Of a stretch of DNA of 64,000 nt, positions 1 to 41,343 are shown piece by piece. The stretch lies in assembly GCA_040285745.1 (NCBI GenBank), contig JAUFOR010000004.1:558001-622000 (forward strand), given 5' to 3'. The stretch is from Barthelona sp. PCE (taxonomy: Eukaryota). The position numbers and the translations under genes are program-made. The notes under the pieces were generated by a model that did no database searches, was not told the DNA's origin, and saw only the letters and a program-made list of their open reading frames with translations. Within the stretch, counting starts at the first letter, position 1, and every line of letters starts with the position of its first letter.

Positions 1-228
1 GACGAACTCAACGTCGACCACGTGCCTGACAACTGGGTTGACGAGAATCGCGTGAAGCAATTCCTCACTAAGACGCTGGGAGTCGGTAGCTCCGGCATCA
101 TGGTCGAGTTTGACCCCACCGCCACCAAGAAGGCGTTCAACCATTCCACGAGAGCCCCCAAGCGCACGCACCGTCCTAAGACGCAAAAGAAGAAACAAGC
201 GTTTAGCGCCAAAGAGGAGGAGAAGTGA
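1..228 (+). CDS. ORF1 (gag-like) C-terminal fragment of the retroelement, open from window start
   Basis: Frame +1 is open from base 1 (DELNVDHVPDNW...) to TGA 226-228, ending in a basic tail. Gag identity is inferred from position only. Confidence 0.6.
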   Translation, partial: DELNVDHVPDNWVDENRVKQFLTKTLGVGSSGIMVEFDPTATKKAFNHSTRAPKRTHRPKTQKKKQAFSAKEEEK

Positions 229-1689
229 AATCGTTCGTCTCCCCCCGCGCGTGATAGTAAATATCTATCCGACAAGGGTGTGGGAGACGCAAATGATCCC
301 AATGCGGTCACAGCGCTCGCGGACAGGGTCGGCGAGCTCTCCATCGAGAACGTCAAATTGAAGAAGGAGATCAAGAGCCTCAAGAAGGAAATCCCTAAGA
401 AGCAGCTCAAAGCCGCGAAGATGGAACTTCGCGCAGCTACCAAACTCGTGGAGCTCGAAGACAAAAGACTAGAAGCCATCAAAGCTCGGGAAAGGAGCAC
501 ACAGAAAACAAAAGCACCTGAGGACGTTAAACGGGAGAAGCCCCGTAAGGAGAAAGCACCAACAGCTACTAGCGTGCAGAAGATGATCTCCAAAGAGATC
601 AACAAACTCAAACACGAGGTTGTAGATGAGCGGAATAACGTCCAAATCTCAAGAAATCCGAAGGAGGTAGTCGGCACAGACACCATGCAGTGGCCGGCCG
701 CGGCGCCACCAGTAGCTCTGCTGAAGCACCTCCCACCCGACATCTTCCAGAAGGGCGGCCCAAGTCAACGAGTACTCAAAGAGGTGGTCCTAGGGGTTAC
801 CGGAACATGGGATATCCTCGGAACAGACCAGATGAAGATCAATTCAGCCGACACGCCCACGGAACAGTTCGTGAGGGACGCCGCGCGCGTCGCTGGCCTC
901 AGCTGCGAAGAAATTGAGAAGACAGTCCGACTGCTCGTGACTGAGGGCGTAACGCGCGACATGGTCGTTATCGAAGGAAAGAAGCCTCGCAGGCAGGAGC
1001 CAGTACGTCACTGGTACAAAGACGACGCCGTCGAATTGAACCTGGCCGTAACCGCGCTCAAAAGTAAGGACCTGATCAAAGAGGTCCCCATCGAAGAGAT
1101 CGAGGACGAACGAAGGGCATTCATTTCCATCGGCGCGGTCCCGAAGAATGCAGAACCGGACTCAAACAACATGTTCGCTCCGACGCAGAAGTTCGAATTT
1201 GACGTCACATCGCCGGACAACGAGCACAGGGTTATCGTCGACTGTACTAACACGAACTCTATGTTCGCCAACATTCCAATGGAACTCATCAAAACCCACT
1301 CTCTCGAGATTGTCATGGGTGGCAATCTCATGTATTCCGTCGACGCAAAGGATGGTTTCACGCTCATTCCACTGGACGAAGAGCTACAAAAACTGTTCTC
1401 ATTTACACACGAAGGTAAGCTTTATCAATGCACTAGAATGCCGTTCGGAGTTTCATTCGGCCCGGCCATCTTCGCCCGCATGATGAACCTGGCAACGACC
1501 GCAATGCGTGCGTTGGGATTCAACATCTGGAGCTACGTCGACGACGCTTTCGGATGGGAACGATCCCTCAGCAAAGCGAGGAACTCGATGATGCTGTTCA
1601 TAATCATCGCGTCGAAACTTGGCATCAAGCTAAACTACAAAAGTCCGTCAGTCCTTCGTACAAATTGGACATCATCGGCTACACGCTGA
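229..1689 (+). CDS. Retroelement pol, N-terminal part: coiled coil plus reverse transcriptase
   Basis: Motifs AVPK, RVIVD, SVDAKDGF, MPFGVSFGP and YVDD (1534-1545). The frame is open from 229 with first ATG only at 421. The true protein continues in the -1 frame at about 1640. Confidence 0.92.
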   Translation, partial: NRSSPPARDSKYLSDKGVGDANDPNAVTALADRVGELSIENVKLKKEIKSLKKEIPKKQLKAAKMELRAATKLVELEDKRLEAIKARERSTQKTKAPEDVKREKPRKEKAPTATSVQKMISKEINKLKHEVVDERNNVQISRNPKEVVGTDTMQWPAAAPPVALLKHLPPDIFQKGGPSQRVLKEVVLGVTGTWDILGTDQMKINSADTPTEQFVRDAARVAGLSCEEIEKTVRLLVTEGVTRDMVVIEGKKPRRQEPVRHWYKDDAVELNLAVTALKSKDLIKEVPIEEIEDERRAFISIGAVPKNAEPDSNNMFAPTQKFEFDVTSPDNEHRVIVDCTNTNSMFANIPMELIKTHSLEIVMGGNLMYSVDAKDGFTLIPLDEELQKLFSFTHEGKLYQCTRMPFGVSFGPAIFARMMNLATTAMRALGFNIWSYVDDAFGWERSLSKARNSMMLFIIIASKLGIKLNYKSPSVLRTNWTSSATR

Positions 1690-4394
1690 GCACCGACGAC
1701 CAGTCTGACGGCGGCCGGCTAGTCTCAACAATTAGACCGTCGGACAAGAACATCAGAAAGATCAGAGAGATGGCTCGCGTAATGCGAAATAGAATCGACA
1801 CAGCAGAACAAATCCCTGTCAGGGACATCATGAAGCTCGATGGCAAACTTGTATCATTTGCCAACGCCTCGACGATTCTTCAGCGGGTTCACCTACAGCT
1901 ACAAGCAGTACTGAAGGATCTCGACGCCCAATACGATAACGCGATATTTGACTCGAGCAGGAACAAGGGCCTACGCCTTCTCCTACCTCTTCCACTAGCC
2001 GACGCACTCACGAGGATCGTTGAATGTAACTTTGAACCGAAGACGCTGAGCTGCGGTAGAGCTAAGGTAACATTACTGAGCGACGCCATGAAGGACCAGA
2101 AACATATAGGCATTGGAGCGAAGGCATACCCAGACGACGACCAAGAGCTCTCGTTTGAACTTCTCCACAGGATGGGAGTGAACGAGCAAGGAGCAAGAAG
2201 GATGTTGACACTTCTCGACGATCTGCCAGAACAGGAAAGAGTAGACATCGAGCAGAACACTGTCGCAACAATCGCGGAGCAGGAGATGGTACCGATCGTC
2301 GAGCTACTCAAGACTAAGGGCAGACAGCTGAGGAACACCGAAGTCGTCTGGTATTGCGACAACACGAACGTATGCGCCGCTGTCGCGAAGGGCTACAGCA
2401 AAAACAAGGTCCTCAACAAGGGGGCCCGCATAGTGATGGAGCTGTGCGAAATGTGGGACGTGATCGTCACACCAATCTACATCAACTCAGAACAGAATTA
2501 TCTTCCAGACAGCATCTCAAGAGGAGCATCGTCGGAGTCGTGGACCAACTCTACGACATTCGTGCACGAGATTCTCCCAGCTAGGGTAATCGAGTTCAAG
2601 ACATCCGTCGTCGCAAGCCTCTACGAACCTGGACACATCCCAGCACTGTACGTCCGCGGTTTCCAGCCCACAAAAGGAAAGTCCAGGAGATCAACGAAAG
2701 CCGCACATGTGACAAGACAATGTCTCGGACAAGACCTCATCTCTCTAGGCGAGTATGACCTCAAACGGAATGCGCTCAAGGTCGACAATGTGGCGAATGG
2801 GACTGCACACTGTACAGGTAAGCTCAAAATCGTCGAAGGATTCGATGACACAAGATACACCGTCCCTCTATCGAATATGGCGATCATCACGAGAGACAAC
2901 GAAAGAATCGAGGCAACAGTTCCGACTTACTCCGCAGCCACAAGCTTAGAGATAGTCATTCTCAAAGTGTGCAGAACCGGCGCGGAAGTAGATGTGATCC
3001 TCCCCGGACCACTCCCGTCTTGCCCATTGTGGGCTACAATCGCACAAAAGACCATCCCATTAAGTGACGGATCCATAAAGATAAGAGTTACGAGAGAAAA
3101 GGTTCTCGGCGGCGAATCCGAGGACTACAAGCCCGCTGGAGCACGCACTCAGAACCCGGTACAGGTACGGGGCAAATCACTATCTCTGGCAGATCTGTTC
3201 GCCATCCCACCGTCAATGGACTACGACGAAGTGCTCGAACTCTTTCTGAAAAAAGGAGCGCACCAACCAACGAGGAACATGCTACATCGCTTCGGGAACT
3301 TCGTTCAAAAGGTGCACGGCACAGAAATAGTGGACGTCGCATGCCCAGGAAACGAAAAGAGACTTGAAGAGCTAATAATCGAGTTCAGATTCAGACTCGA
3401 ACAGGAAACAAAATCGAAGAGGCGTGCGAACGGCGACACCACCGAAGTATGGAGGTACACCTCAGATACGATTAACAGTTACATTTTCCACCTGCGTAAA
3501 GGACTGCTGGTTCTGAAAATGTTCATCACCGACAAGAAATCTCTCCTCACGACCGAAGAACTCGAGCAACTCGTCCAGCTTAGGGCGGCAGTAATCAGAT
3601 GCACACTGAGCGAGAGCTCAGAAACACAGAAATTCGCCATCAGCACGTCAGCAATCAGATTCCTGGCGGCAAGAGAGATTGAAGAGCTTAAAGCACTGGT
3701 CCAGGAAGGTACCACGAAGAAGAAGGCCCTTCAGAAGCTAAACAAAGTAAGAAGAAGAATTGCTATGATGTCATCAATGTACAACTTAGGATGCAGAGCG
3801 GCGTCTCTTGCCGCAGTCAAGACCCACCAAATTGAAGTCTCAAAATCCGGCGATGTCACGGTAACGCTGGACAAAGTGAAGAACCAACAGGGTCGACCAA
3901 CCAGCTACATGATCCCCAGAAACGTATGGGAGCTGGGCACACTGCACGACTATTTAAACGACGCTGTGCAAAGAGCAAAAGAAGGAGGTAAAGAGTTTAT
4001 TTTCTCGAACGGCGGAGAAGCCCAGAGCGTCTCGAATGCATTAAACACCATGTTCCGAGATTACAACGAGAAAATCAAGCAATCTGACCACAAGAATGCA
4101 AGCAAATTCAGAGTATTCAAAATGACAGCTCATGGCCTTAGAGCCGGCAGGGCAAAAGAGATAGCACAACATCCAGATGCGACTGTACGAGTATCAGCGC
4201 AAGGAATGGGTCTCTGGAAGGATGTGAAGGCGATGAACCTTGACTATCTCACGAAACCACTATTGACGTTTGAGGAACGAGAGGTGTTGAGTCCGATGGA
4301 ATTGGAAGGATGGGTTTTAGGCCACTTCCCGGACGAAACACCCTCTACACGTGAAGGCGAGCCTTCCCACGTGAGCGTTCCCCGACGTCAATAA
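1640..4394 (+). CDS. Retroelement pol, C-terminal part: RT thumb, RNase H, degenerate methyltransferase-like region, tyrosine recombinase
   Basis: KSVSPSYKLDIIGY (RT end); RNase H LLSDA, AEQE, YCDN, NYLPDSISR; YR catalytic set GCR (~3789-3797), KVK, HGLR (4131-4142), GLW, DY (~4242-4247). Confidence 0.92.
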
Positions 4395-4410
4395 ACCTAC
4401 TTCAGTATAA
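4313..4410 (+). repeat. Direct repeat B1 (98 bp), overlapping the end of the YR ORF
   Basis: Identical to 4546-4643 (ggttttaggccac...cttcagtataa). Confidence 0.97.
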
Positions 4411-4545
4411 GGTGACATACAGGCGCTAGCCTTCAGACTTTATACTTGAGGTAGTAAACAGCGGAGGGGGACGAAGCGAACCGTCATGTGTAGTAGGTGT
4501 CCGTAGGACCCGATACGGTTTTTCTTACCTTTTTCAAAAAAAAAA

Positions 4546-4643
4546 GGTTTTAGGCCACTTCCCGGACGAAACACCCTCTACACGTGAAGGCGAGCCTTCC
4601 CACGTGAGCGTTCCCCGACGTCAATAAACCTACTTCAGTATAA
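4546..4643 (+). repeat. Direct repeat B2 (98 bp), 3' terminus of the element
   Basis: Identical to 4313-4410, preceded by an A10 tract and followed by AT-rich host DNA. Confidence 0.97.
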
Positions 4644-5145
4644 TTATTTGAAACAAAAAATTGTTTCAATATATGCGTTAAATAATTAATTTTAAATCCT
4701 ATTTAACCACAAATTTAGTCATATAACAAAAACATTTTTCAAATAACTTTTTTATCAACGTGTAATTACTATTTATGGACTAAAGTTAGTATGTATGGAT
4801 AAAAAGTCTTTATATCCCTGTAATCAAATTTTGTGTGTGTGATTGAAAATACTACAATATTTTATTGCAACTCAAATATTTCCTATCTTAATTTTTAACA
4901 ACGTCTTATATCAATTTTGATTAAACATTTTGATTTAAAACTAATTTTAAAGGCCAATAAGACTTTATAATAAATAAAATGAATCAATATTTAAATTTAA
5001 ATTTTACTTCCTATCATTAAAGAAAAAAAGTTTTTGTTCACAGTAGTAAGATAACCAAAAAATGGCACTGATCAGGACGATCCTGTAATTGATTTTGAAC
5101 AGAGAATGGAATAGAACGTATGCGGGTGTATTTCAATTTCTCACG

Positions 5146-5332
5146 TTTCCTATTTATTTTATTTGTACTATTTAGTAATTGAAATACTACTATTTTTCAG
5201 ATGTATGGATTTCCAAACTCTGAAGAAGGTACCCGTTTGCGGCACCATATCCGAACGTCAGTGATGAGACTAGGAAAAGAAAATCATCCTTATAAACAAT
5301 AGGAGAAAATGTGTATTCCTATATCTCTGTAG
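5146..5332. repeat. Duplicated non-coding module, copy 1
   Basis: Colinear blocks tttcctatttatttt..tgtactat..attgaaatacta..ttcagatgtatggaYttccaaact, gatgagact..gaaaatcat and tctctgta are shared with 7806-7980. Confidence 0.8.
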
Positions 5333-5341
5333 TCATGGAAA

Positions 5342-7474
5342 CTATTCATTATGATAATGCTCATGATAATCTGGCATGTGATACTCAAAGATGGACGCCT
5401 CTGCCAGGAAGGATGGAAGGTGGAACCTTTCCACTGTGGGATTCATCGATTCCGGGTCTTCCTCAACGTTATATGTTTTCAACACCATTGTCTTGGTCTC
5501 TTCTTCGTATGACATGTCTTGAATAACGTTGTTAGGCAGATTTGGATCGTGGCTTATCTTCATATCAGGAGAATATTGTAAATTGTTGTTTGTGTAAAAA
5601 CGCGTCTTAATTGCACATGCTTCAATGTATGCTTTAATGATACCACCCCTCACGTGTATGTATGAATCTCCCACGAAATCATTGAAATAGTTGCCTTCCT
5701 CAATTTTTTCATTCATACTATTCTGATAAAGGTGAACAGGCTCTAAGAAGCTTCCTGTTGACCAATCTAAACAGTGTAAATGTTGCGTTGTTGCAACCCT
5801 ACTGTGTGTACATACAACAAACAGCTGATGATCAGGTGTTTCAGCTAATGGACTAGGGTTGAAGTAAACATCATATAAATATTCATGTTCAAAAACAATG
5901 TGCTTTTGAACCTCCACGTCATACCCGTTGACATTAAGCTGAAAAAAATGGATTGCTTCTTCACATAAAATGCACGCTGAATTATCAAAATGTGAACCAT
6001 AAACACTTCGAATATAATTATTCGGGGGAAGCTCTAAAATCACCTTTTCTCCCAAATATATCAGTTCTGTATCTTCACGATAGTCAACATTTAAGGGCAA
6101 CCCTTGAATAAAACCGCGGTTTTTAGAACCGCAATGAGGTAAAATGGTTGTGATTGGCTTAAATTCTGAGCCGGTCCAGCATAATTTGACATATGTATTT
6201 GTTTCACTATGTTTCTCTGCCATTACAAAAAAATCATCTCCTTCATTTGGATGAACTGATAAGATCTGGCACCACACACGTGAAAACGGTTTCCTGCACC
6301 CACGCAGCACAATAAGCTTCCTTTCTTTGAAAAAAAAGTAACATCTTATTGAAGCGATATGACCATACACTTCCTCTATCCCATCAAAAAAAATGCGTTT
6401 TGGTTGAAGACTGTTCAAACGCAAAACCTCCTTACTAACCTCTCTAAATTTGATTGGGCCATAACGTCCTGTTCTTCTATCTTCACCAAATAAAACACTA
6501 CATTTACGAAAGGAACTATCATTCAAGTCTATGTGTTTCAAACTATGGCAGAGTACATTCTTAAAATTCATTTCAACCTCTGATATCTTCAATTCGCCGT
6601 TTTCGATATGAATTACCACACAACTTGATCCAAATCCAATAAGTAACATTAACAAAACATCTTGAGTAAGCGTTAATAATGCAAAATTTGAGTACATGTA
6701 AATATTCAATCCTTTAAGCTGCGGAAACCTTTCTGTCAAGTTAACTTGGTTCCTTTGACTGTCAAATATTACCAATTCATCAACTTTATAATTGTCAAAG
6801 CTAACAGAGCAAATGCAATCCGAGTTTAAACAGCTGATGTATGATAAATGAACACCACCATGTAACTGCTCAATATCAGGTTCATGTGCCTCGTCCATGT
6901 CATCAACAGAAAAATTGTAATGCCATATGAAATTATCTTGGCAATACCTCAACAAAATGTAGTTTGGAGTTCTCACCGAAATTGAGTAATATTCTCCAAG
7001 ACATCTATAATCATAGGTTATAACATTTAATATGTAGCATTGTATCAACTGCCTGTTATCAACGGTTTCTTTAATGGCGAATAATAGGTGGTTTTCATCC
7101 AACGGAACTATTCCGCTTGATAGACTCTTAATCATCGGAAACGGAAAGGGTACTATTCTTCTTGTATGTTCTTCATTCATGACATCATTAAATAATAAGA
7201 TATCAAAATGGGTTATAATACCACTGTCATCAAAAAGCTGTTCGATGATCATGTAAGATTCTCCAGCTTTTAATTTGGATGTGTATTGAAGAGGCTTACG
7301 CGTATCCTCCACATATCCAATAAAGTCCTTGCCTTCAATGGCGCTTTCAATGAGGCTGATTTCGGTGATTTCTCTTGACTTAAGCAATACTACGCCCTCT
7401 CCCTCAAATATCATCTGCCCATCAGGATAAGCCTGCATGACAAGGTCTTCCTCGAATTTACGAACCCTAGGCAT
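5342..7474 (-). CDS. Hypothetical lineage-specific protein (~710 aa, possibly beta-propeller rich)
   Basis: Long uninterrupted ORF, probable start MPRVRKF at 7474; C-terminus similar to 10059-11783. Confidence 0.75.
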   Translation of the reverse strand: MPRVRKFEEDLVMQAYPDGQMIFEGEGVVLLKSREITEISLIESAIEGKDFIGYVEDTRKPLQYTSKLKAGESYMIIEQLFDDSGIITHFDILLFNDVMNEEHTRRIVPFPFPMIKSLSSGIVPLDENHLLFAIKETVDNRQLIQCYILNVITYDYRCLGEYYSISVRTPNYILLRYCQDNFIWHYNFSVDDMDEAHEPDIEQLHGGVHLSYISCLNSDCICSVSFDNYKVDELVIFDSQRNQVNLTERFPQLKGLNIYMYSNFALLTLTQDVLLMLLIGFGSSCVVIHIENGELKISEVEMNFKNVLCHSLKHIDLNDSSFRKCSVLFGEDRRTGRYGPIKFREVSKEVLRLNSLQPKRIFFDGIEEVYGHIASIRCYFFFKERKLIVLRGCRKPFSRVWCQILSVHPNEGDDFFVMAEKHSETNTYVKLCWTGSEFKPITTILPHCGSKNRGFIQGLPLNVDYREDTELIYLGEKVILELPPNNYIRSVYGSHFDNSACILCEEAIHFFQLNVNGYDVEVQKHIVFEHEYLYDVYFNPSPLAETPDHQLFVVCTHSRVATTQHLHCLDWSTGSFLEPVHLYQNSMNEKIEEGNYFNDFVGDSYIHVRGGIIKAYIEACAIKTRFYTNNNLQYSPDMKISHDPNLPNNVIQDMSYEEETKTMVLKTYNVEEDPESMNPTVERFHLPSFLAEASIFEYHMPDYHEHYHNE

Positions 7475-7805
7475 GAATAGCCGTGATGAAGTAGGTGAAT
7501 ATTGAGATAGCTTGAATTTCTTAAATATTAGTGCTTGCACGTGGCATATACAAATGATATAATGCACCTGAAGCGTAAAAAGAAAGCGAGAATGTGAAAC
7601 AAAACTGCATTTGCATTTCTATCCCCTCACAGTTTTATTGATGTGGTTCGCAGGGCTCACGGCGCGTGAAACGTAAGATTGTTGGCACGTGAGGGCATTG
7701 GCTTGATTGTGGGGCACTTTTTTGCTGCGTTGTGGGTACGGATTGCAGATAATATATTTGAGTGTTTTGCAAATGAACTACAACCCAAATTTTATTCTTT
7801 TATGA

Positions 7806-7980
7806 TTTCCTATTTATTTTTTGTACTATCAATATTGAAATACTATAAACTTTCAGATGTATGGACTTCCAAACTTAATTCTCTGTAAAGAGTCTGTTTA
7901 CTCTCCCTTACCCCCCGTTTACATGGATGGATGAGACTCTGGAAGAAAATCATGCATCACAGCTTCTTATTCTCTGTAAT
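7806..7980. repeat. Duplicated non-coding module, copy 2
   Basis: Colinear similarity to 5146-5332. Confidence 0.8.
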
Positions 7981-23084: not shown

Positions 23085-24116
23085 ATGGACCACCTACACT
23101 GTAAAATCAACGACCAAACACTCGTTGTTGAGAAATTGGAGCGATTCGTTGATGATAAAAAGTGTGTAGTTAAGTTAGTTGGCGCAAGATTACCTGAGGC
23201 TATTAGAACCATCCGGTTGTCGAAAGTACCGCGAGTTATTCTCTTTATCCGATATTTGAGTGACTTTAACCTTACAAAATGCAGAGAATTGTTAACTGCT
23301 CACCCAGAAATTGCCAACCAGACAACTGCATACCGCGAGTGGCGCCCTGTACACTACTGCGCGGACTTTGGGACAAAGCAGCAGTTGAAATTACTAATGG
23401 ACTTCAACATTGATTTGAATGTTATCGATAAGAACCATCAACATCCTCTTCACATTGCAGCATCCTCAAACAATCTAGGTATGGTCGTTTCGCTCCTTAA
23501 GAACAATGATCAAATTCAATATGTTGGAGACATACACGGAGAAACACCTCTATTTCTTGCAATTCAACGCCATGCATCGATTATGAACAAGAGAAACAAC
23601 GAGGTAAACGCAAACCTCGCTCTTCTTACCGTCAGGACGCTTCTACAGTGCGGGTCTAATCCAATGCTGTACACTGCTTCTGATCAAATGACGTGTTACC
23701 ATTTGGCAAGCCAGTATGGTGACTACGAAGTTCTGCAGCTGCTTCTGAGCGCCGGAAAGAGTTATCTATCAGACATCAACCACGTTGACAAGGAGGGTGA
23801 TAATTGTTTACATTTCGTATGCTACGAAGCAAAATGCGCTCGTTGTGTGCAGTTGCTCATTGAACACGGCGCCGATCCTTCGCAAAGAAACAACCTTGAG
23901 AGGCTTCCAGGCCAGGAACTTGGTTCTAATGAAAAGGATCTCGCCATAAAAGCATTGTTGAATAACACCCAAATGTTTAGTGGGAGTCAACGAAAGTCAA
24001 AGAGAGCGTTGCATGCCCAAACAAGGAGTCCTTTCCTGAGCCCAGGCAACCCTTACAGCCCTTACAGCCCTCTATCTCCTTTGAACTCACCAAAATCTCC
24101 ATACAGCCCCCTCTAA
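23085..24116 (+). CDS. Ankyrin-repeat protein with SP-rich tail
   Basis: PLHIAAS, GETPLFLA, TCYHLAS, GDNCLHFV, LLIEHGAD. Confidence 0.9.
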   Translation: MDHLHCKINDQTLVVEKLERFVDDKKCVVKLVGARLPEAIRTIRLSKVPRVILFIRYLSDFNLTKCRELLTAHPEIANQTTAYREWRPVHYCADFGTKQQLKLLMDFNIDLNVIDKNHQHPLHIAASSNNLGMVVSLLKNNDQIQYVGDIHGETPLFLAIQRHASIMNKRNNEVNANLALLTVRTLLQCGSNPMLYTASDQMTCYHLASQYGDYEVLQLLLSAGKSYLSDINHVDKEGDNCLHFVCYEAKCARCVQLLIEHGADPSQRNNLERLPGQELGSNEKDLAIKALLNNTQMFSGSQRKSKRALHAQTRSPFLSPGNPYSPYSPLSPLNSPKSPYSPL

Positions 24117-25075
24117 TCAATCTTTTGTTTTTGCTTCTTTTTACGTGATCGATGGTAGAGCATGATGACGCTGAGGAGTCTTGCTACAAAGGCAGGCAGT
24201 ATGACCTGGAAGCAGTGAATAGCTTCGTGGTTTGTTCTTGCATTAAAGAAATATCGTGATAGCATTTGGGTAGTTGAGCTCATTAGAATGATTATAAGCA
24301 TTGTTGGATCTGTTCTTTCGATGATTGTGAACCCTGCTTCTACAATAAGATCAGCAGCATTTGTTTTTAAAGAGAAAAATAGGATGGTTGTCCATAAAGC
24401 ACTCATTTTTAATTTTAGACGAGGTTTAGTTATTAAATATACAATAAACGGCATAATAAAGCCAACTGTTCTGTAAAAAGTTCTAGAATTATGATTTCCA
24501 CTTGAAAAAAGCATCCATCCGAGTGAATAATCCATTTTCACCTCAGAATCTACAAAATTGAGACCATGGCGCACGAGATCAAACCACAATCGCACGAATC
24601 CAGCTAAAAAACAAAGAATTCCCTCAAATGAATCACCGATTGCATTTGTTGCCAGTATAGCTGTTCTAGAATCCAAAAAAGGTAAAACAATGAAGCACAT
24701 TGAACGAAAGCACTCAAACACAGTTCCCAGTAGTAATAAAAAGGGTACAGCAAGAGAACAGTTGATATCATGATATGCTTCATGCAGAAACGGAAACATT
24801 CCACATCCCAGAGAGAAAAGCACGGCTTCCGACATAGATTTGCTGTGGAAAGCAATAGTAAAGGCCAGAAGATGAGGAAATACGACTTGTAATAATTTTA
24901 AGCCCCATACTTGAAGAATTGTCGGGTTTTTAATGTTTGTGAACATGAACATCTCATAAGGATTCAACACCAGAACCGTTTCTATAACCAAAAATGCAAG
25001 GAGGTAGCTCAACGCGAAATTTGCCTTCTTGTGCTTTTCTCTCAATGTTGAGCATGTCAGATCACAGTCGTTCAT
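24113..25075 (-). CDS. Hypothetical polytopic membrane protein
   Basis: Many hydrophobic segments and a basic C-tail; start uncertain. Confidence 0.7.
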   Translation of the reverse strand: MNDCDLTCSTLREKHKKANFALSYLLAFLVIETVLVLNPYEMFMFTNIKNPTILQVWGLKLLQVVFPHLLAFTIAFHSKSMSEAVLFSLGCGMFPFLHEAYHDINCSLAVPFLLLLGTVFECFRSMCFIVLPFLDSRTAILATNAIGDSFEGILCFLAGFVRLWFDLVRHGLNFVDSEVKMDYSLGWMLFSSGNHNSRTFYRTVGFIMPFIVYLITKPRLKLKMSALWTTILFFSLKTNAADLIVEAGFTIIERTDPTMLIIILMSSTTQMLSRYFFNARTNHEAIHCFQVILPAFVARLLSVIMLYHRSRKKKQKQKID

Positions 25076-25130
25076 TTGCAATTCTGACTTTTCAACCAAA
25101 AAAACTAATTGAAAGAGATCGAAGATGTAT

Positions 25131-26558
25131 TTACAAACGTGCACCCAAATCTTTTGATAAGACTCTATCAAGATCCTTTAGTTCTGAATCCTGAGACTTT
25201 CCAGGGCACATTAACTTCAATGCCAGAGTTAAAATTCCAAATCCTAAGAAAGCAATGATAAAATAACTCCATGTGTGCTTAAGGTACTTGATATTCTCTA
25301 TTTGAACACTAACAAGCGTCTTAACAAGCGCCACCCTCGAGTAATCACCGAAAGACTTGACACAGAACTGTACAATTGGGAAGACAGTAATGAGTAACAA
25401 CCATACATTGAAAAGGATTGAGTTCAACGTTGTGTCGTTCTTCCTCATCTTGTGCACTGTGAAGAACAGCACCTTGAGGCCTACGCTGGCGACACCATGT
25501 AAAACAGCCCAGAGCAGGTAGAGAGCGCAGAGAGCGTACGCAGCAATACCCAAGAGAGGGAAGAAACCATCAAGAGCAATGAAGAAGGAGTTAAGGAAGG
25601 GGTGGACGGCGGGCTTAAAGAAGAGATAGAGTAGCACATGAACGTACCAGAAGCCACTGATAACAAAGAATAGAATACCCAAGAAGCCTTTGAACCAGAA
25701 CCAGATGGGTGAACCACCGTGCTTATAGAACGCAAGCTTTGTGATATCGTTCTGTGCTTGTAATTGTTCAAAGGCATTCTTCCACCTGTTGAACATTTTT
25801 TTCTGTTGGCGTGTTGGTTTGTCGTTGAGCTCAAGTTGGGAGCGCAACTCAACGCCGATCTCGCGCAGACGCTGACCACGGGATGAGAGGGTGCGCCTAT
25901 GCTGAATGAACTTAGTAGTTACGCCAGATTTAGGTCTCTTTCTATAGTCATTGATGAGTGAGAATGGAAGTGTGAACAGACCAATACCGCCAAAGATCGT
26001 CAGGAAGATGTTTCCAAGGAAGGAAATCATGCCTGCAAGGAATACTGGATAGGAAAGATCAATTTCCAAGTCGACGGTGTTTAGTGTCTGTGAAGAGTAA
26101 TCGCCAGTCAGTTCCTTCGGTGCGCATGTCATGTACTCAACGGGGAGTTCAATCTTACCAAGGAAAATGTAACCAATGAAAAAGAAAAGACAGAAAATGA
26201 TGAGGAACATGATAGCTGAGCATAAACCTGACATGATGGATGCTTTACCCTCTGCGTTCATCGACTCGTAGTAGTACTGAGCGAATGGAATGATGAGTAC
26301 AATGAATGCAATGAGTGCGTAGAGAAGCATGTTCCACATCTCCACGATTGGATAGGTGTCATCTCCCACGTTAGCAATGTCGAACGGTAGCATGAGCACC
26401 AGTGACTCAGCTATGAGAAGACCAAGGATGATAACAAGACGTGGGAACCAACCAACCCATTTATCCTCTGGGTGTCTGTAGAATTGGATGAATATGATAT
26501 TTATGAAGAAGCATACTCCCAGGATGCTTGCAGCAACTATTCCAAGGAACCAGTTCAT
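25131..26558 (-). CDS. LMBR1-like membrane protein
   Basis: HPEDK..WFPR, LMLPFDIAN, IPFAQYYYE, FGGIGLFTLP, RP, K.DTTLNSILFN. Confidence 0.9.
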   Translation of the reverse strand: MNWFLGIVAASILGVCFFINIIFIQFYRHPEDKWVGWFPRLVIILGLLIAESLVLMLPFDIANVGDDTYPIVEMWNMLLYALIAFIVLIIPFAQYYYESMNAEGKASIMSGLCSAIMFLIIFCLFFFIGYIFLGKIELPVEYMTCAPKELTGDYSSQTLNTVDLEIDLSYPVFLAGMISFLGNIFLTIFGGIGLFTLPFSLINDYRKRPKSGVTTKFIQHRRTLSSRGQRLREIGVELRSQLELNDKPTRQQKKMFNRWKNAFEQLQAQNDITKLAFYKHGGSPIWFWFKGFLGILFFVISGFWYVHVLLYLFFKPAVHPFLNSFFIALDGFFPLLGIAAYALCALYLLWAVLHGVASVGLKVLFFTVHKMRKNDTTLNSILFNVWLLLITVFPIVQFCVKSFGDYSRVALVKTLVSVQIENIKYLKHTWSYFIIAFLGFGILTLALKLMCPGKSQDSELKDLDRVLSKDLGARL

Positions 26559-27125: not shown

Positions 27126-30100
27126 TTACGGTCTGCTCACGAAAAGAAGAATAGAAGTGCACAAGAGAACTGTAGTGAGCAGGATGTAATGCTGTCCGAC
27201 CGCTAACGCAATGAAATACACTGAAAAATTAAATACAAATGTAAAAACAAGGGTTTTTGGCTTTTTGATATAAGTGGCACACAAAAAGAGAACGGGGAGC
27301 AGCAAGAAAAGGTAAGAGGGTGCCTGTGCAGACATACTGAGCTCAGCAGAGGCGAGGGATGGAGTGGTTGCGCAGAAGAAAACATTCAGCTGAACAAGAA
27401 AAGCATAGCACAACTGTTGACCAAAAGATTGCGATTTTCCGCGCTTTTGAGCGAACCAAAGGATCAGAGCAGCGAGGTGCAGCGTGACACACACCCATAA
27501 CAGGGGACCTGAAACGCGGAGAGTCAGGAGATTAAGAACGTCAAAGCGAGCACCGAGGAAAGGGAGCACATAGCACACAAGCATGATGAGGCCCGCGCCC
27601 TCAGCACGCTTCAAAGCTGCGGCAATCGTGGAAATTGCAGCAATTGAGATCAACGAAATGAAGAAATTGGAAAAATTGGTTTTTGCACACATAAACGCAT
27701 AGCCAACGTAGCCGTCGTCGCACATAGAGCAAAGATACCCGGTGGAGTTGCGGCACCTATCTCCATTGCAGTTGACAGTGGGACAAATAACAGCTTTCAT
27801 AAACGAACCCTCAAGGTAGTGGTCTGGACTTGCGTACTGTATCACACCGCTGGAACACCGCACTGTTTCATCGCACGGAACGCATAAACCTTCTTCGATA
27901 CGTGTTCCTTCAGAGCAGAAGCAGGCGTTAATATCAGAACTGCCTTCCACTGAAGTTTTGGAGAGCGGACATTCAGCACACGGTTCATTTCCGATCTCAT
28001 TCTTATACGTTCCTGGGCCACACACGACGCATTCGTCTGATATCAGCGAAAGTGTGTGCCCAACATTGCACTTGCAACTTCCCTCAGTATACGATGATTT
28101 TTGAGAGCATGTTACGTTACCGATAGTGAAAACGTTAGATATGAGACTCGTGTTCGACACGAATCGCACCTCTATGAAGTCATTTGGCTCCACCAAAAAA
28201 GAGGCGGGAACGTGTAGGCACCGTTTTCGCTGTATGTGAATGTTGTGTTGTAAAGTGAGATGCCACCAACAAGAGCAGTGAGTTCAATGGTATCGCGAAC
28301 AGCCGCACCACTGTAGTCTGTGAAATTAAGTTCTAGAATTAGATCAAACCCAACAGCAGCCTGAACGACTCTTGTATTGAATGAGTAAACGGTTGGTTCG
28401 AAGCTGATGGTATGCGTGGCATTATATGGGCCCAGCGCTACCGTGACACCGACATCCTGCGTGGGGTCAGCGACAGTTAAGGTTTTAGTGGTGTCGTTAT
28501 AAACACACCCACTATGTGCATTACATGACACTTGTGCTGGTCCTGTTATTCCGCCATACGCATCAGCACAGTCGATATCAACTATTGTTGTTGCGTTTGG
28601 AAGGAAAAATTCGTCTTTTTGAGGTTTAAAACTGCAGGAAACAGTTTGACCAACGAGAACTTCGAGATATCCAGTTTCGGACACGCCATCAGCAGAAAAG
28701 ATAAGCTGATGTGTCCCGTGCGCTTTGGGTATCGGTATCCACACTAGATCAGAGACCACGTTGCGACGGATACCATCAACAAATACAAACGGAACTGTGA
28801 TGACATGGCGACGGATGTTGAGGAACACGCACCTCAAAAGAGCTGATTCCCTGTCGATAGATACTCCACCGGAAATAAGCGGTACGATCTCTGTCGGCTG
28901 ACTGTAAAGATGACCGTGAAGCTCAAGCTCAACTAATGAGTTGCACTCGTTGTTGAACTCAACGGTGACCGATTCGGCAGCGTAACGATGATTCAGAAAG
29001 ACAACACAAACTGTTTGGTAGCGCAATCCTGACACATAGTCCTCGCACACAACTTCATCTCCGCTGTAAACAAACGTATACTCGTCGTCAAAAGTGAGGG
29101 ACACAGACGGTGTGCACACGTCGTTCATGAAAAAGAGAGTGTTTTCAACATACACAGGCTCAGCAACACTAACAGTGTGTGGTGTGGTCGCATACAGCCC
29201 GTCGCAGCGCTTTCTGCTGTTTATACGCGGATCGTCTGCTGTGAATGGCAGGTACCTAATGTAAGGCATTGAGAGGATATCGCTGAACACCTCAACACTT
29301 GTTGGCAGAGAGCTGTTGTAGCATAGCTCGGACTGGGGCATTGTTATCGTGAGGAGCACGGGATGTGTGTAATACTGACCGGCTGTTGTCGATAGCTGAA
29401 TCATATACACCCCAGCGGTGACAAAGTTGCACTGTGCTTCCATTTCAAAGGTGACGCGGCACTCGACTGTTGCGTCGCTTGTGATGACACTAAGTCCATC
29501 GAATACATCTAGGTCTGTTCCCTCGAGGGTGAAGCCCTTTTGTGTAAGGAACATTCTCTGTGGCGATACAGACAATAATATAGGTTTCACAACGACACAC
29601 ACCTCAATTTCGATGCTAGAGGCGAATGAAGATACAGTGAGTGTTGTGTTTTGCTTCAAGCGAGAGGTGATCTGGACCGACTGAGAGTCCAGCTTTGCTA
29701 CTGTAGCATTCGGCATTGAGAAGCTTATAATGTCCATTGGTAGTGGCTCAGCGAACCGCACAACTGAAGTGTGAACCGCATCGTATGGCACTCTTTGGAC
29801 AGAAATGGGTTTCGCATCAACTCGGGTGAATTCCAGTGTTTTACCAATAGGTTCTGCAGATACTGTGCTTCCAGAGCCACTAACGACAATGCAGCTGTTG
29901 TTTTGTGATGTGAAAGGACAGACATCACCAAGATCGTTGGTGAAAACGAGGGCATCAAACGGTAGGTTTTCGCCACAGAGTAAAACTTTAAAAGTATCGT
30001 CTAGAACTATGTACTCCTGTTGATAATCAAGAGAAAATCCAGAAACAGTGCCTGCAGCCTGTGTTATATCATCGCAGACTAAATCAGCAAGTATATCTTC

Positions 30101-33100
30101 AGAATCAATGGCCACATCGCAGGATATTCTAGTTCCCAATTCAGAAACAGCGCAGAGCGTGGTTGTGTTGCCCATGCGAAGGAGGGTGACGGAACACGAG
30201 TCCCAGTTTCTGCCTTCCCATTCCACCGTTGTGAGCGATCCGCGGTTGGCAAAATGAGTCTTGCTTAAAACGAATAGCTGTACGAATGACACGGGGAGCG
30301 TTACACGTTGGCCCACGGTATACTCGATGCTGAGCACGGATGACTCCGTGACTGCGACTTTATCTGTCGAGACAATAAACCCGCCATCAACATACGCTGA
30401 AAACGGCACGTTATCCAGTAGAACAACTGCTGCGTCAAGATTTGCATTTTCGAGTTGGATGGGAGGCAACGTTGTCTCGTCCGCATACATGACCTTCTGA
30501 GGTGAGACGCCAAACACAAGTACCTCTCTGTTGAGACTGAGCCAGTCCCCGTCTTGCTTCATGATTGCAGCGTTGAACATACCAGTTGGGAGTGAAACAT
30601 CGCACTCGAAGACACTGATCTCGTGAAGATCACGACAGGGCACCTGAATCGAAAAATGTAAACTTGTTAACTTCAGTTTTGGCTGCAGGGCTAGTGGAAG
30701 TTGTTCAAAACCAATGGTAAGAGTCGAAGTATCCTTTAACTCTGTACTGGGAATCTCTGTTGGATGAATAGTTGGGAGGAAGGCGTATGAAACCGAAACG
30801 GGGTTGCTTGTTTGACCATCGACGTTCACTGTCAGAGCGAATGTTTCGGTTAACAGCGTAGCACTTGATCTGCACATGGCCAGGGGTGGCGGAGGAAGGT
30901 TAAGTGTCGCGCTGGTGTGCGATATCACAGTTACAGGAACAGTTGCTTCCCAGCCGGAAGCTGCATAAAGATGAGCTGAGGCAAGCTCTCCTGATGGGCC
31001 GAAATTATTACCAGTAAGGCGAACCGCTGTGGATGAGAAGCAAACACCAGACACACGGGAGTGTATGAATGGAGGTTGATAACCGATAGTATAATCACTC
31101 GTGTATACTGAGCCAACCTCAACAGAGTAGTCGATGGTTGCACCGGTTCCCTCCATTACACTCACCATCAGCTCATTGGGGCTCACCACTTTGTTTAGCT
31201 GCATCTTATCCGAAGCTAACGTAGTTGCGCCTGGGAACGCCAGCGATCCAAGAAAGTCACCATAAACAAACACGACATCACCTGCTGTTGCAACCAATGG
31301 CGGATTAAACGCCATGATGACAGGTGCAGGTGGTGATACTGTGATAACGGTCCCATATACTGTGATTGCCGCATGACCGATGCATTCAGAAATCGTAACT
31401 TTGAGATTGTGTCTTGATAAGATCAACTCAAAAGCAACAGTGGACGAGTTGGTCGCTGATGCCACCTCGCAGCCGCCGTTGTATTCTGCGCTGATGGGGA
31501 TAAGCTCAGTCTGAGGCAATTGTGTCAGTTCGATCGATGTGATACCGAGAGACGGCGGTGGAAGCACAACACTACGCTCGTAGCAGTATGCGTCATAGCA
31601 GATATCCAGAGATATCTCATCGTGGGCACAGCTGTCAACTGGAAGGGTGGTTGTGATGTCTGTATCTTGCCACAATGAAACAACTACCTCTACGCCATTG
31701 ATGCGGAGAATAAACGAGGCACTATCAAATGTCACAGGTGACAGCAGATCGGTTCCTCTTATCACCAGAGCTATTCCTGTGACTTCTGCTCCAGTGATGG
31801 TAGGCGGTGTTCGTGATACAAACTCGAAGACTCCCTGGCTCTCACCTTTGTTCTTGAACTCAATAGTGTGGTTATAACCGTAGAAAGAAGAAAAGCGTAG
31901 ACCGGCTGTCGTTTCAGTCAAGGAAAACAAAGATACAGAAACTCCGTCAACCGTGGCTGTGTACAAGTCGCAGCCGAAAGTACTCCTTTTGAAGAAGTCT
32001 GCCACAAGATCAAACGAGTCCCCACCCCTGACTACAACTGGGGCAGTGGAAAACGAAAGGGGTTTGGAAGAAAATGAGCTGACGATATCTTCTGCACCAT
32101 TTTCTTTGCTTACTGTGAGGAGCGTGGATTTTAATGTGAAGTCTCTCGTATCAACATCGCACAGGACGCTGATCTGGTTCGTATCGACCTGACAGCCGAG
32201 AGTTTTCCTGCTACAAACCGACTCAAGCACAAAGTCATAGAATTCCAACATATTTGTCACTTCACTATCATATGTACAGTTGATGCGCGTATCTGTTCCG
32301 CGATCCAGCACAGTAGGGGTGCAGTGCACGGAATTCATTAACTCTGGCTGGAAGTGCTGGTAGCTATACTGATTCATAGCAGACCAGTACATGCCGAATG
32401 TGTGCTCATAGACGAGACCAAACGTTGTGGGTACTGGGCTATTCGTGAGTTGCGCTCGCCTGTGTTGTAATGGGTTGAAAGTGATTAGATCTACGTTTGA
32501 AAGCGCAAAATCTGTAATATCTGCTGTTTTTTCAACAAACAGCAGTCCACCACTACCCGTCATCGTTTTTATATCAGAGGACAGATCCGTGTATGTGGGA
32601 TGCTCTCCAAGCGAACAACCAGCAATGTTGTGAGTGAATCCTCCATCGACGGTACACTTATCACTTCCGTCGTACTCTATATCAACGAACTCTCCTCCAA
32701 ACGTACTGATACTTACATCTCCACCCCCTACTTTTATAGAAGAGTTTGTGTGTATGTTTCCCTTAAGAGATAACGTGTTCGCTTCATGATCTGACACGAT
32801 AATGATGTCTCCGCTGAGGTTCTGAGCTGTTGAGTTAGAAACAACAAATGTGCCTTTAGCTTGAGACTGCCATCCATTGCTCAGAGAGACGTTGTAGTTG
32901 GAACCATAAAGACCCGCATTTGTGACGGCCCCTGTGACAGCACCACTTTCTGCGGTGTTCACAGTTCCGTATGGGAACAATCCACGAACTTCACCTTGCA
33001 AGGAGACAGTATCACCAGAGAATACTCCTTTGAATTCACCGCTTAGTGTGCAACTGTCAAAGTTACCAATAACCGGGTTCTCAGCAGCGTTCACTAGCCT

Positions 33101-36100
33101 AGCATTCTCAAGATACGAGGGATTGGGTGCAATGTGCTTGAATATCAAGTTGTCCAAACGAAATGCATCAAGAGTGCGAGAAAACAGTGTATTGTCATAG
33201 TAATCAGGTGCAAGCGTGAGATTAAGAGGCGTGGTGCCAAAGATCACAGATCTCACATTGTCGGCAGCAAGCGATGTCACAGCATCAGTCAGAGCCAATG
33301 CGACATCCAGCTTTCCCAATAACGTAAGAGATTCTCCATCGAAGCGCAGTTTAACACGATCATTCTTATCCGTGAATGTAGTCAGATCAAGTGTTAGATC
33401 TGACACACCAAAACCAAGATCAAAAAAGTTCATAGTTGTGACGCCGATTGTGAGGGGTTCAGTCGTGGATATATATATCATCGCACTACGAGCGTACGCA
33501 ACCAGTACGGTATCTATGCTCGACACAGTGATCTGCGATCCGTCCATCAGCGTAAACTCTTTGGAGAAAGAAGATGCTGTTACACGAGCGCCGTTCTTCA
33601 AAACCATCGCGTTTGGGTCCGAGGGTAGATGAACTGCAGAGTCCTCAACGAACAATATGGTATTGTTCAATTTAGTTATCGTCAGGTCAGCCAATGTACC
33701 GTCAAAAATTCGCAATCCGAGACAGCTCAAACCCACACCCGACAACTCTCCGTCTATCTCATAGGCCCACACAATCGCTGCAGTGTGTGACTGACTGGGA
33801 ACATCATAGATAATGGTAAACCATGAATCAGCCTTAAAGAGACCAACAGCAGTCGCTCCTGCGGATTTATAGTTCTCAAATACCATAGAATAAACGGTAT
33901 AAACGGTGAAACCGCTCAGTATTCTCATATAGCACAGTTTATCATGGTCAAAGTGAAAAAGAGTGCATTTTCAGAGGGAACAAACGTGCACGGTTGACTA
34001 GATGGTGAAGTAGAAGCTCCCTGGAACGTATGACTGTGATTTAAAGGGGATAAAATACACCGTTGGGCATATGACGGATTACTGAATTGATATACTAAGA
34101 ATTGATGAGTAAAACCAACTGAAAAAATTTCTGGTGTGTGATCACATCCATCTGTGTTGAATTGAAGAATCGCAAATTCAGAGACAAATACTGGAACTTT
34201 TATCCTCTCAAGGTAATTAATTTCATTAATCACACATATAGAATAATCTTCAAAATATAATTGCAAATTAAAAATATTTTCGGATAAGGTTGTATCATAT
34301 ATTATCTTCTTAAAAACAAAAACAATTGCCTCATAATCTGCATTTTCTTCGATGATATCACAGTTTGAACTGCATAAAATGGTTGAGTTTTTTAATTCTG
34401 GACGAATAGAAACTCCATCAACATAGACCAATGCACCATCTGAATTTGTGCATCTAATTTCCGTTTTTTGGTAGATAAATGCAAAAGGAGCTGTCGAAAT
34501 TGAATCAGTATTTGGTATAAACATGTATGCATCAACTTGATTAGTAGACGAAGTTAACGTTTCTCGCACAACGTTCCCTCTTATGTTCTGATCGCCCATG
34601 ATACCATCTATGTAGCTAAAACTCACACTGGTCGATCCATAATCCATACTAAATACAGATATATCAATTTTTGAGGTACTATCAAGGACAAATCCGTTTT
34701 GGACTTCATTTAATCTCAATATTATCACCTCACCACTTAATTTAGTTGAAAGTTGAAGATCCAACGATGCCTTGAAACCACCAAAGAGTAATGAATGTAA
34801 TCCTAGGGAAAATGTTTCAATATCTTGATGTAATACATCTGTGGAACCACTGAAAACACCAATACTTTTAAACATATTATCATCAGTGATTGTGAGATCT
34901 CCAGCACTAACAATTACAATACTGTCCGTACTGCCAGAAACGGAAACATCACTAAGAATAAAATTCACACCAGGAGAGGAAATAAACGACATGAAAAGAC
35001 TTCTAATAGCAATCTGGAATGGTTTTTCATCGGTTTGTCGCAGGTGAAGTGGGTTCGTTATTGCAATGCTTAATACAGTGTCTGGTTCAGTGGTAGTAAC
35101 AAAACCTGAAGTGTACTCGTTCACAAGAAACACTGATATCGATGCATCAACAGCCAGAGTTGTGGTGTCGATCAGATTGATCAGGCGGACGACCAGGAGG
35201 GAATCTATGAATGTGGATCCAATAGTCGGTGTGGAATTGATTTTGTGAGCTATCGTAGCGTAAGTTCCCATTTATCTCGGTGAGGCTGAACCCCTCGATT
35301 AATATGGCTGGACTTAGGCAATTATTAATTGTTATTGTACTTCCAGTGCTGAATACGCATGTTGTATACGATACTGCATTACCGACCAAAACCCGTGAGT
35401 TATCGATTCTAAAGGCGTCATCGATGTCAGACACTGAGCGGAGTCCCACTGTGGAATCGACAAAAGCTGTTGAACCAGTGAAGTGAGTGATGTCAGTGAA
35501 CTCGACTGTTGAGTTTGTTATTGTCAAATCCGTCGTCTGGGTCGGCACCTCAATTTCCAGAGAGCTGTCCGTAACGGTTCTGAGCGTTCGCATGGGGGCG
35601 AGCGATATCAGTTTGCCGCTGCTGCTTTCAATGTTGACTACATTGAGATTCAAAGTACGTAACTCTACTGTGATATTGTGAATTTGAAGAGTGTCCACTG
35701 AAAGCGCGTGGACAAACATTGTCATGCAATCTGTCTCGACTGAGAGCGTACCAATGGACAACATTGTTAGGTGCGGTGTGAAAGAGACTAAATCGAATTG
35801 CCCTGCAATGCTGAGCTTTGTAAAGTGCGTTTCTAGATCGGGAAGAATCAAGTAGCCATCCTCTTCAACCCTGATGCTGCCAGCTCGTCCATATACACGG
35901 GCATGCTTGACGATAATGTCGACATTGGGCGCATCGCGAAGGACTACACGCAAACAATTAAAGTTTGCGGTAATTCTGATGTCTCCCATGATGCGAACGC
36001 GTGTAAAGAGTTCGCATATGTGCTCGAAGTCACCCGATGTGAACGCTTTTGACTCAAACGAAAGGGTTGAGTTTGCTGCAAGCTCCTTTTGGGTTATTAT

Positions 36101-41122: not shown

Positions 41123-41343
41123 TTTCGATACAACAATACGAATGAAAAGGGTATTCAATGTGTAATTAGGAAGTTGGTTGTTGTAGTGTATAGTTACTCT
41201 TATGGTTTTTTAAGCGAGGTGCATTGTCTTTTTAAGGAATAAACATCCACATGAAGCATGCAAAAAGAAGATATTTTGGAATATTGAGCAAAGCTGAAGT
41301 GTTGTGCCATTCATTACCTTTTCACTGATAACTATTTTGTAAC

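Follow-up and report, generated by a model that had tools for sequence, protein, structure and literature searches.

A candidate UGA readthrough signal between ORF1 and pol of a probable tyrosine-recombinase retrotransposon

Results

The window analysed here is a stretch of eukaryotic DNA of 64,000 nucleotides (nt), which opens inside a retroelement; positions 1-4643 are the visible part of that element. Its ORF1 (about 498 codons; ORF, open reading frame) and its pol (about 1,390 codons), which carries a reverse transcriptase (RT), share one frame and are separated by a single UGA. An earlier, sequence-only reading of the window had proposed that this UGA and a hairpin behind it make up a readthrough signal. 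As that reading stated, frame 1 is open over 1-225 and ORF1 ends at TGA 226-228. Its further claim, that the frame stays open from there through the whole RT, held in part: the frame is stop-free to 1686, with the first in-frame ATG at 421, but a stop at 1687-1689 interrupts it before the end of the RT. ORF1 is called "gag-like" by position only. No Pfam family was found in it, and a protein atlas returned capsid leads below threshold only (best 0.87, lead threshold 0.9). Positions 1-225 gave a 99% match to the gene model P0002, from residue 498 onward, and the stretch 229-420 gave a weak bZIP-like match in Pfam. The coordinates of all features are collected in Table 1.

The hairpin had been described from the letters of the sequence, and each of its pairings was recovered. 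The core arm CGTCTCCC (236-243) is perfectly complementary to GGGAGACG (282-289), ATCGTT (230-235) and AATGAT (292-297) extend the stem with one G-U pair among them, and GATAG (253-257) pairs with CTATC (265-269). When 226-300 was folded, the minimum free energy (MFE) structure was exactly this hairpin, and the spacer before the core stem was indeed 7 nt. The MFE was -29.1 kcal/mol, compared with -16.18 (standard deviation, sd, 2.84) for dinucleotide shuffles (z -4.55), and none of 200 shuffles was as stable. It persisted when a 201-nt context was folded, in the MFE and the centroid structures alike. In a scan of 1-4643 by 457 sliding windows of 75 nt (mean -15.21, sd 4.38), the hairpin window ranked third, behind 2401-2475 and 4271-4345. 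These two are the element's other most stable 75-nt folds (-30.5 and -28.6 kcal/mol, respectively), and the fold of 4271-4345 covers the final part of pol together with the beginning of direct repeat B1.

Synonymous recodings of 229-300, in which the peptide was kept and codons were drawn from the element's own usage, reached the native stability in only one of 2000 cases (mean -16.3, sd 3.4, z -3.77). In addition, minor synonymous choices (relative frequency 0.26 or less) make up 13 of the 14 codons that follow the stop. These two results suggest that, if 229-300 is translated, its codon choice has been bent towards pairing. A search of Rfam at expect values (E) up to 5 gave two chance matches to long non-coding RNAs and no selenocysteine insertion sequence (SECIS) or recoding family. 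No pseudoknot was found; a possible 5-bp pairing of the loop with downstream sequence was seen by eye only.

Codon usage after the stop was examined with a model trained on pol 421-4391 only, the score being the log-likelihood margin of the in-frame model over two off-frame models. The whole stretch 229-420 had a margin of 0.325, while real coding windows of 64 codons had 0.325 ± 0.072 (n = 121) and off-frame windows of that length reached at most -0.169 (n = 242). For 301-420 the margin in the gag/pol frame was 0.491 (in-frame 40-codon windows, 0.312 ± 0.09, minimum 0.039, n = 250; off-frame 40-codon windows, maximum -0.052, n = 500). The margin of 229-300 was -0.167, which is below all 256 in-frame 24-codon windows. 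Coding signal is back at about 255-265 and is then unbroken through ATG 421. Because 301-420 has coding-like usage and lies upstream of the first ATG, translation seems to begin before ATG 421, and the unbroken signal from 255-265 suggests that pol lacks its own start codon and depends on being continuous with ORF1. From codon usage, then, the coding part of pol seems to start well ahead of ATG 421 and in the frame of ORF1.

Table 1. Coordinates of the features of the retroelement and of the junction between ORF1 and pol
Feature	Position	Strand	Remarks
Last 75 codons of ORF1	1..225	+	Translation; basic tail at the end; 5' part of the element lies outside the window
33-nt GT..AG segment modelled as intron	225..257	+	Takes in the TGA, the last base of the Lys codon before it and the hairpin's 5' arm
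In-frame UGA between ORF1 and pol	226..228	+	Next base A
Spacer, stop to G+C-rich core stem	229..235	+	7 nt; 230-235 also able to form the weak outer stem
Stretch after the stop without stop or ATG, gag/pol frame	229..420	+	Linker and predicted coiled coil; proposed pol N-terminus of the fusion
Predicted RNA hairpin	230..297	+	24 bp; MFE fold
Stems of the hairpin	230-235/292-297 (outer); 236-243/282-289 (core); 244-246/276-278; 250-251/270-271; 253-257/265-269		
Apical loop of the hairpin	258-264		7 nt
Pol, frame 1, first ATG to frameshift	421..1641	+	RT core with YVDD at about 1294-1635
A4 run breaking the pol frame	1639..1642	+	A5 required in four sibling copies
Rest of pol, frame 3	1641..4394	+	RT end, RNase H region, conserved middle region, probable C-terminal recombinase; TAA 4392-4394
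Probable tyrosine recombinase	about 3714-4169	+	Phage_integrase is the top Pfam match
Direct repeat B1	4313..4410	+	98 nt; overlaps the end of pol; 100% identical to 4546-4643
Inter-repeat segment	4411..4545	+	Would be A2 of a split-direct-repeat layout (inferred); its partner A1 would be 5' of the window
Direct repeat B2, end of the element	4546..4643	+	G+C 0.50-0.53 before, 0.37 beyond

The RT was matched by RVT_1 with E 9.6e-13 in the window and 2e-14 in P0152, an intact sibling of the element, both above the curated Pfam cut-off, and by RT entries in PDB with a best E of 7.5e-5. The pol frame is broken once, at 1639-1642. Lys-Lys is read across this site in the sibling gene models P0152-P0155, and P0002 skips it. 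Since four sibling gene models lack the break, the frameshift is, on their evidence, a copy-specific deletion of 1 nt or a homopolymer assembly error. At the C-terminus, Phage_integrase was matched with E 3.3e-4 (20.9 bits) in the window and E 6e-3 in P0156 from Barthelona sp. PCE (hereafter PCE), both under the cut-off of 27.1 bits. Arg, His-x-x-Arg and Tyr are invariant between the window recombinase and its PCE relative, and the AlphaFold model of the region (predicted local distance difference test, 46.1) was too poor to judge the fold. No DDE integrase (rve) was matched by Pfam in the window pol or P0152, and in 1641-3200 neither Dam nor any other methyltransferase was matched, even with E allowed up to 1. 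The visible part of the element, 1-4643, showed no inverted repeat, its 5' terminus lying outside the window. By its domains the element is a retrotransposon with an RT and a probable tyrosine recombinase (YR). Its layout is nearer Ngaro/PAT, which have split direct repeats, than DIRS1-like in the strict sense; it was filed as Ngaro/PAT-like because its visible repeats look like split direct repeats and because no methyltransferase domain was found.

The remainder of the window is eukaryotic genomic DNA that is dense in genes, seems poor in introns and has a G+C content of about 40%, with host ORFs for eIF3d, ELP3, WD40, ankyrin, LMBR1 and superfamily 1 (SF1) helicase proteins. Each of the 24 long host ORFs is uninterrupted. 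The 26 ORFs of 300 amino acids (aa) or more end in TAA (13), TAG (7) or TGA (6). Five of the 24 listed host ORFs are terminated by TGA, among them the ELP3-like ORF, which ends 11 codons past its last domain. As TGA ends host ORFs, UGA is taken to be a genuine stop in this host. No tRNA genes were found in the window.

Three other ways of dealing with the UGA were considered and rejected. An alternative genetic code conflicts with the use of all three stops; selenocysteine is spoken against by the lack of any SECIS match and by the host genes that end in TGA; and frameshifting at the junction of ORF1 and pol is rejected because both ORFs lie in one frame.

Relatives of the element were sought with HMMER among 1.84 billion representative proteins, using the ORF1-stop-pol reading as a query. 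There were 2936 matches at E up to 1e-3, of which only two were under 1e-30: P0002, which is 99% identical to the window element, and P0003 from PCE, which at 31% identity is the only relative above background. Eight further RT matches, among the 148 others listed, were scanned for domains; a Dam-like domain occurred in one, Phage_integrase in another and an integrase SAM-like domain in a third.

The P0002 cluster consists of five gene models (P0002 and P0152-P0155) on three Mb-scale contigs. All five share the same junction, at which exactly 225-257 is removed as an intron, and none of them reads a sense codon at the position of the stop. About 10 true substitutions in 1876 residues separate the copies (about 99.5% protein identity), which by shared substitutions fall into three sublineages (P0152; P0002; P0153, P0154 and P0155). 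P0002 matches the window copy in sequence and in the RT defect. Four of the five copies have a bypassed defect of their own, and P0152 is open everywhere apart from the 225-257 junction. Because the junction is common to three sublineages and to the otherwise intact P0152, a private nonsense mutation in the window copy is unlikely, as far as these models can tell. In P0002 an 80-nt modelled intron (1643-1722) hides the frameshift and deletes conserved RT residues, and the 225-257 intron is, judged by these models, probably an annotation device as well. The deposited proteins of the element thus seem to differ from those encoded by the DNA, the stop being masked by a probably invented GT..AG intron and the frameshift by an invented one. 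In P0155 the element is fused to a downstream host gene, which by eye resembles an ABC transporter.

Word-indexed protein searches extended this comparison. P0001 at near lengths gave no match, and residues 400-700 of P0152 gave one cluster at near lengths, the five-member one, and none at shorter lengths, so that no stop-less model was seen. For the PCE relative, the HMMER alignment of the query to P0003 begins only at query residue 150. Between P0003 and P0157, another PCE model, 1076 of 1133 aligned columns are identical and the only three gaps are modelled ones of 13, 29 and 13 residues, one of the 13-residue gaps in P0003 sitting at the collinear gag/pol junction.

At the DNA level, metagenome (two scans), viral and prokaryote contigs gave 80, 99, 95 and 59 pattern matches, none of which was confirmed by tblastn. 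Two sequencing runs of one study, X1 and X2, labelled as different organisms, contain pieces of the element that are at least 99% identical to it, at a depth of about 2-6. The flanking host DNA had no true cover in these runs (1-4643 against 4699-5200), and 175-348 was uncovered in all three runs examined. That X1 and X2 hold the element without its flanking host DNA suggests that the element lies at other loci or in other strains.

Discussion

How pol is expressed relative to the gag-like protein in tyrosine-recombinase retrotransposons is poorly understood. The sequence-only reading had this element make Gag and a Gag-RT-RH-YR fusion (RH, RNase H) by programmed readthrough. The stop, the shared frame, the hairpin and the spacer on which it relied all hold, and the interpretation placed on them is supported in part; in our judgement the case for it and the case against it balance. 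Of the two refuting observations named in that reading, a sense codon in other copies does not appear in the gene models, and a pol start at ATG 421 is disfavoured by the codon usage. Programmed readthrough of the UGA, stimulated by the predicted hairpin and giving an ORF1 protein and an ORF1-pol fusion, is nevertheless the best single explanation, one we would rate at an even chance. It is favoured because of the shared frame, the coding stretch without ATG, where the hairpin lies and how strong it is, the bias of codons towards structure, and the presence of the junction in an otherwise intact copy. In such a scheme, most ribosomes would stop at UGA 226-228 and release the ORF1 protein, and a minority would decode the UGA with a near-cognate tRNA and go on to make an ORF1-RT-recombinase fusion. 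With the stop in the A site, the hairpin core 7 nt downstream would stand at the mRNA entrance and favour decoding of the UGA, and a high gag:pol ratio would be obtained from one RNA. We infer that the stop is ancestral to the family, that the hairpin stimulates readthrough and that the fusion protein is made.

Firth et al. reported readthrough spacers of 7-12 nt and stems of 10-14 bp in alphaviruses, furoviruses, a coltivirus and Drosophila kelch (PMC3159437), and the 7-nt spacer and the core of 8 + 3 bp found here agree with those values. The element resembles the alphaviruses (Venezuelan equine encephalitis virus, Sindbis), Colorado tick fever coltivirus, the furoviruses and kelch in its in-frame UGA, spacer and stem, and it resembles structure-stimulated viral readthrough in that the downstream product would be a polymerase fusion (PMC3159437). 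It differs from the alphavirus type in its protist host, in being a retrotransposon, and in having a compact hairpin of 68 nt rather than a loop of 100-270 nt, here predicted from sequence alone. Murine leukaemia virus likewise makes Gag and Gag-Pol from one RNA by way of an in-frame stop with a structure near it, in that case a pseudoknot about 8 nt downstream, with readthrough of about 5% (PMC2194720, PMC3159437); unlike that virus, the present element has UGA and not UAG, a simple hairpin, and a spacer that is not purine-rich. In-frame stops between gag and pol are established for murine leukaemia virus and have been reported for Tca2 and SIRE1 (PMC2194720). Tca2, a Ty1/copia element of Candida albicans, is close in plan, in that a UGA parts gag from pol within one frame and is followed by a spacer of 8 nt and a predicted pseudoknot (PMC2194720), although it is a long terminal repeat element with an integrase.

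In its domain order, the element is like the tyrosine-recombinase retrotransposons (DIRS1-like, PAT, Ngaro, VIPER/TATE), in that the RT comes before a probable recombinase at the C-terminus, ORF1 is gag-like by position and the 3' end has direct repeats that would be of the split type. These families have been described with three ORFs, with or without overlaps (PMC3266345), with gag-like, RT/RH and YR ORFs in the Ngaros of Cafeteria (PMC8547959), and with three ORFs or a single ORF in VIPER/TATE (PMC6681497). The present element differs from the described families of the DIRS order, whose ORFs are separate, overlapping or single (PMC3266345, PMC8547959, PMC6681497). A full-text literature search, in which neither the main review of the class nor supplements were covered, found no description of an in-frame stop with a recoding structure in tyrosine-recombinase, DIRS or Ngaro elements within the texts it reached. 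On a reading that we see as evenly poised, programmed UGA readthrough would be met here for the first time both in a tyrosine-recombinase retrotransposon and in a protist of a deep-branching, barthelonid-like kind. If it is true, structure-stimulated readthrough of the alphavirus/kelch type works on such ribosomes and was recruited independently for the gag:pol ratio in the DIRS order. Stop-codon readthrough would then join the expression strategies of the tyrosine-recombinase order and extend to a little-studied eukaryotic lineage. The candidate signal is compact, at 75 nt.

Several observations weigh against readthrough driven by the hairpin. The element has two further sites whose folds are of about equal stability. 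The stop context is UGA-AAU-CGU, with A as the +4 base, so that neither of the classical leaky contexts, C after UGA or CAR-YYA (PMC2194720), is present. Such a context is not required in every structure-dependent case, since kelch has UGA-AUG (PMC3159437) and is a precedent for a UGA followed by A that works with such a stem. The hairpin region 229-300 has atypical, non-coding-like codon usage, which would also be expected of an intron or of a spacer that is not translated. That the TGA is conserved is read from gene-model junctions and from protein identity of about 99.5%. The PCE predictor made unneeded in-frame introns, so a common junction does not demonstrate a common stop. In P0157 gag and pol are read as one uninterrupted frame through the collinear junction, and the PCE relative may, as these models stand, be a plain fused ORF. 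By BLASTP, the post-stop peptide (229-480) had no significant collinear match in P0157, the best E being 0.086 at a non-collinear place. The label "DIRS" of the sequence-only reading is loose; the element would fit it in the broad sense of a tyrosine-recombinase retrotransposon, and the inverted repeats and methyltransferase of strictly DIRS1-like elements were not found in its visible part. Lastly, the flanking sequence of Tca2 gave no readthrough in a yeast reporter, though pol is made from the gag-pol RNA (PMC2194720). We would read Tca2 as a warning rather than as a proof of principle, in that gag-UGA-pol with a predicted structure need not be simple readthrough.

The reading of P0157 as one open frame through gag and pol is also what makes an inherited nonsense mutation conceivable. 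A fused gag-pol ancestor would have given rise to a master copy with a TGA, which spread by trans-complementation or segmental duplication, and the hairpin would have another role or none. Single-ORF tyrosine-recombinase elements have been reported, for example the TATE of Bodo saltans (PMC6681497), four of the five copies carry other defects, and repeat masking before annotation, as in the PCE project, could hide stop-less copies. Against this history speaks the site of the stop, which is exactly one spacer length upstream of a structure that ranks among the three most stable in 4.6 kb; a random mutation would rarely land in such a place. The history would also have to account for a junction common to three sublineages and to a copy with no other defect, and the searches with P0152 residues 400-700 at near and shorter lengths found no stop-less model. 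We consider it unlikely.

Hardly different in probability, if slightly lower, is a real spliceosomal intron of 33 nt at 225-257 that removes the stop, so that unspliced RNA would serve for ORF1 protein and as template and spliced RNA for the fusion. Splicing is known to control gag versus gag-pol in the Ogre elements of plants. The segment has GT at 225-226 and AG at 256-257, is exactly 33 nt long and keeps the frame, and the coding signal resumes at about 255-265, near the proposed 3' splice site. All five gene models use it, and at the collinear junction P0003 likewise has a short modelled intron, of 13 codons and in frame. Beyond GT and AG, no extended splice-site or branch-point motif was recognised against what we take to be the consensus, and the apical stem of the predicted, very stable hairpin would hold the proposed 3' splice site. 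The same annotation invents the 80-nt intron 1643-1722, removing RT residues that are present in four of the five siblings, as though any GT..AG were used to bridge defects, and the PCE models have unneeded in-frame introns inside the RT. The 24 uninterrupted host ORFs make the host look intron-poor in the window, and the segment is kept in all copies, so that spliced RNA would not be the form copied. On the other side, the published annotation pipeline of the PCE genome used RNA-seq hints (PMC11316075), and in Drosophila copia regulated splicing sets gag versus gag-pol (PMC2194720); a real intron at 225-257 would yield the same two products. The present case differs from copia in that the splice motifs are GT..AG only and the annotation proposing the intron also makes false ones.

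Somewhat less probable than either is a non-canonical bypass of the stop on full-length RNA, without direct stimulation by the hairpin, as was concluded for Tca2, whose pol is made off an RNA of gag-UGA-pol layout although its flanking sequence alone gave no readthrough (PMC2194720). Here the spacing of the hairpin and the codon choices that favour it fit a direct role. The remaining account, and to us the most improbable, is that pol is translated independently, from ATG 421 or a non-AUG codon, by way of a subgenomic RNA, an internal promoter or reinitiation. The 192 nt from the stop to the ATG are long for termination-reinitiation, coding-like usage is unbroken from about 265 through 421, and the hairpin would be left unexplained. 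ATG 421 is in frame, but it has no counterpart in the PCE alignment, which is weak there. A minor internal promoter has been described in the gag-pol junction of Tca2 (PMC2194720).

Other features of the window

No real host intron could be defined from the pairs of overlapping ORFs at 25131-25177, 33925-33970 and 35147-35271. On the minus strand, 28172-41209 holds three long successive ORFs (1932, 448 and 2020 aa) that overlap by 46 and 125 nt; the two largest gave no Pfam family. Together they may form a single gene of over 4,300 codons with two frame changes, caused by indels, assembly errors or tiny introns. At 24113-26558, also on the minus strand, an LMBR1-like ORF (475 aa, in which Pfam covers the first half of the profile only) overlaps the next ORF on the same strand (354 aa) by 47 nt; a single gene could here contain a frame break or a short intron. 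Finally, a direct repeat of 42 nt (88% identical) at 5178-5219 and 7834-7875 flanks an ORF of 758 aa (5342-7618), and may be a shared intergenic signal.

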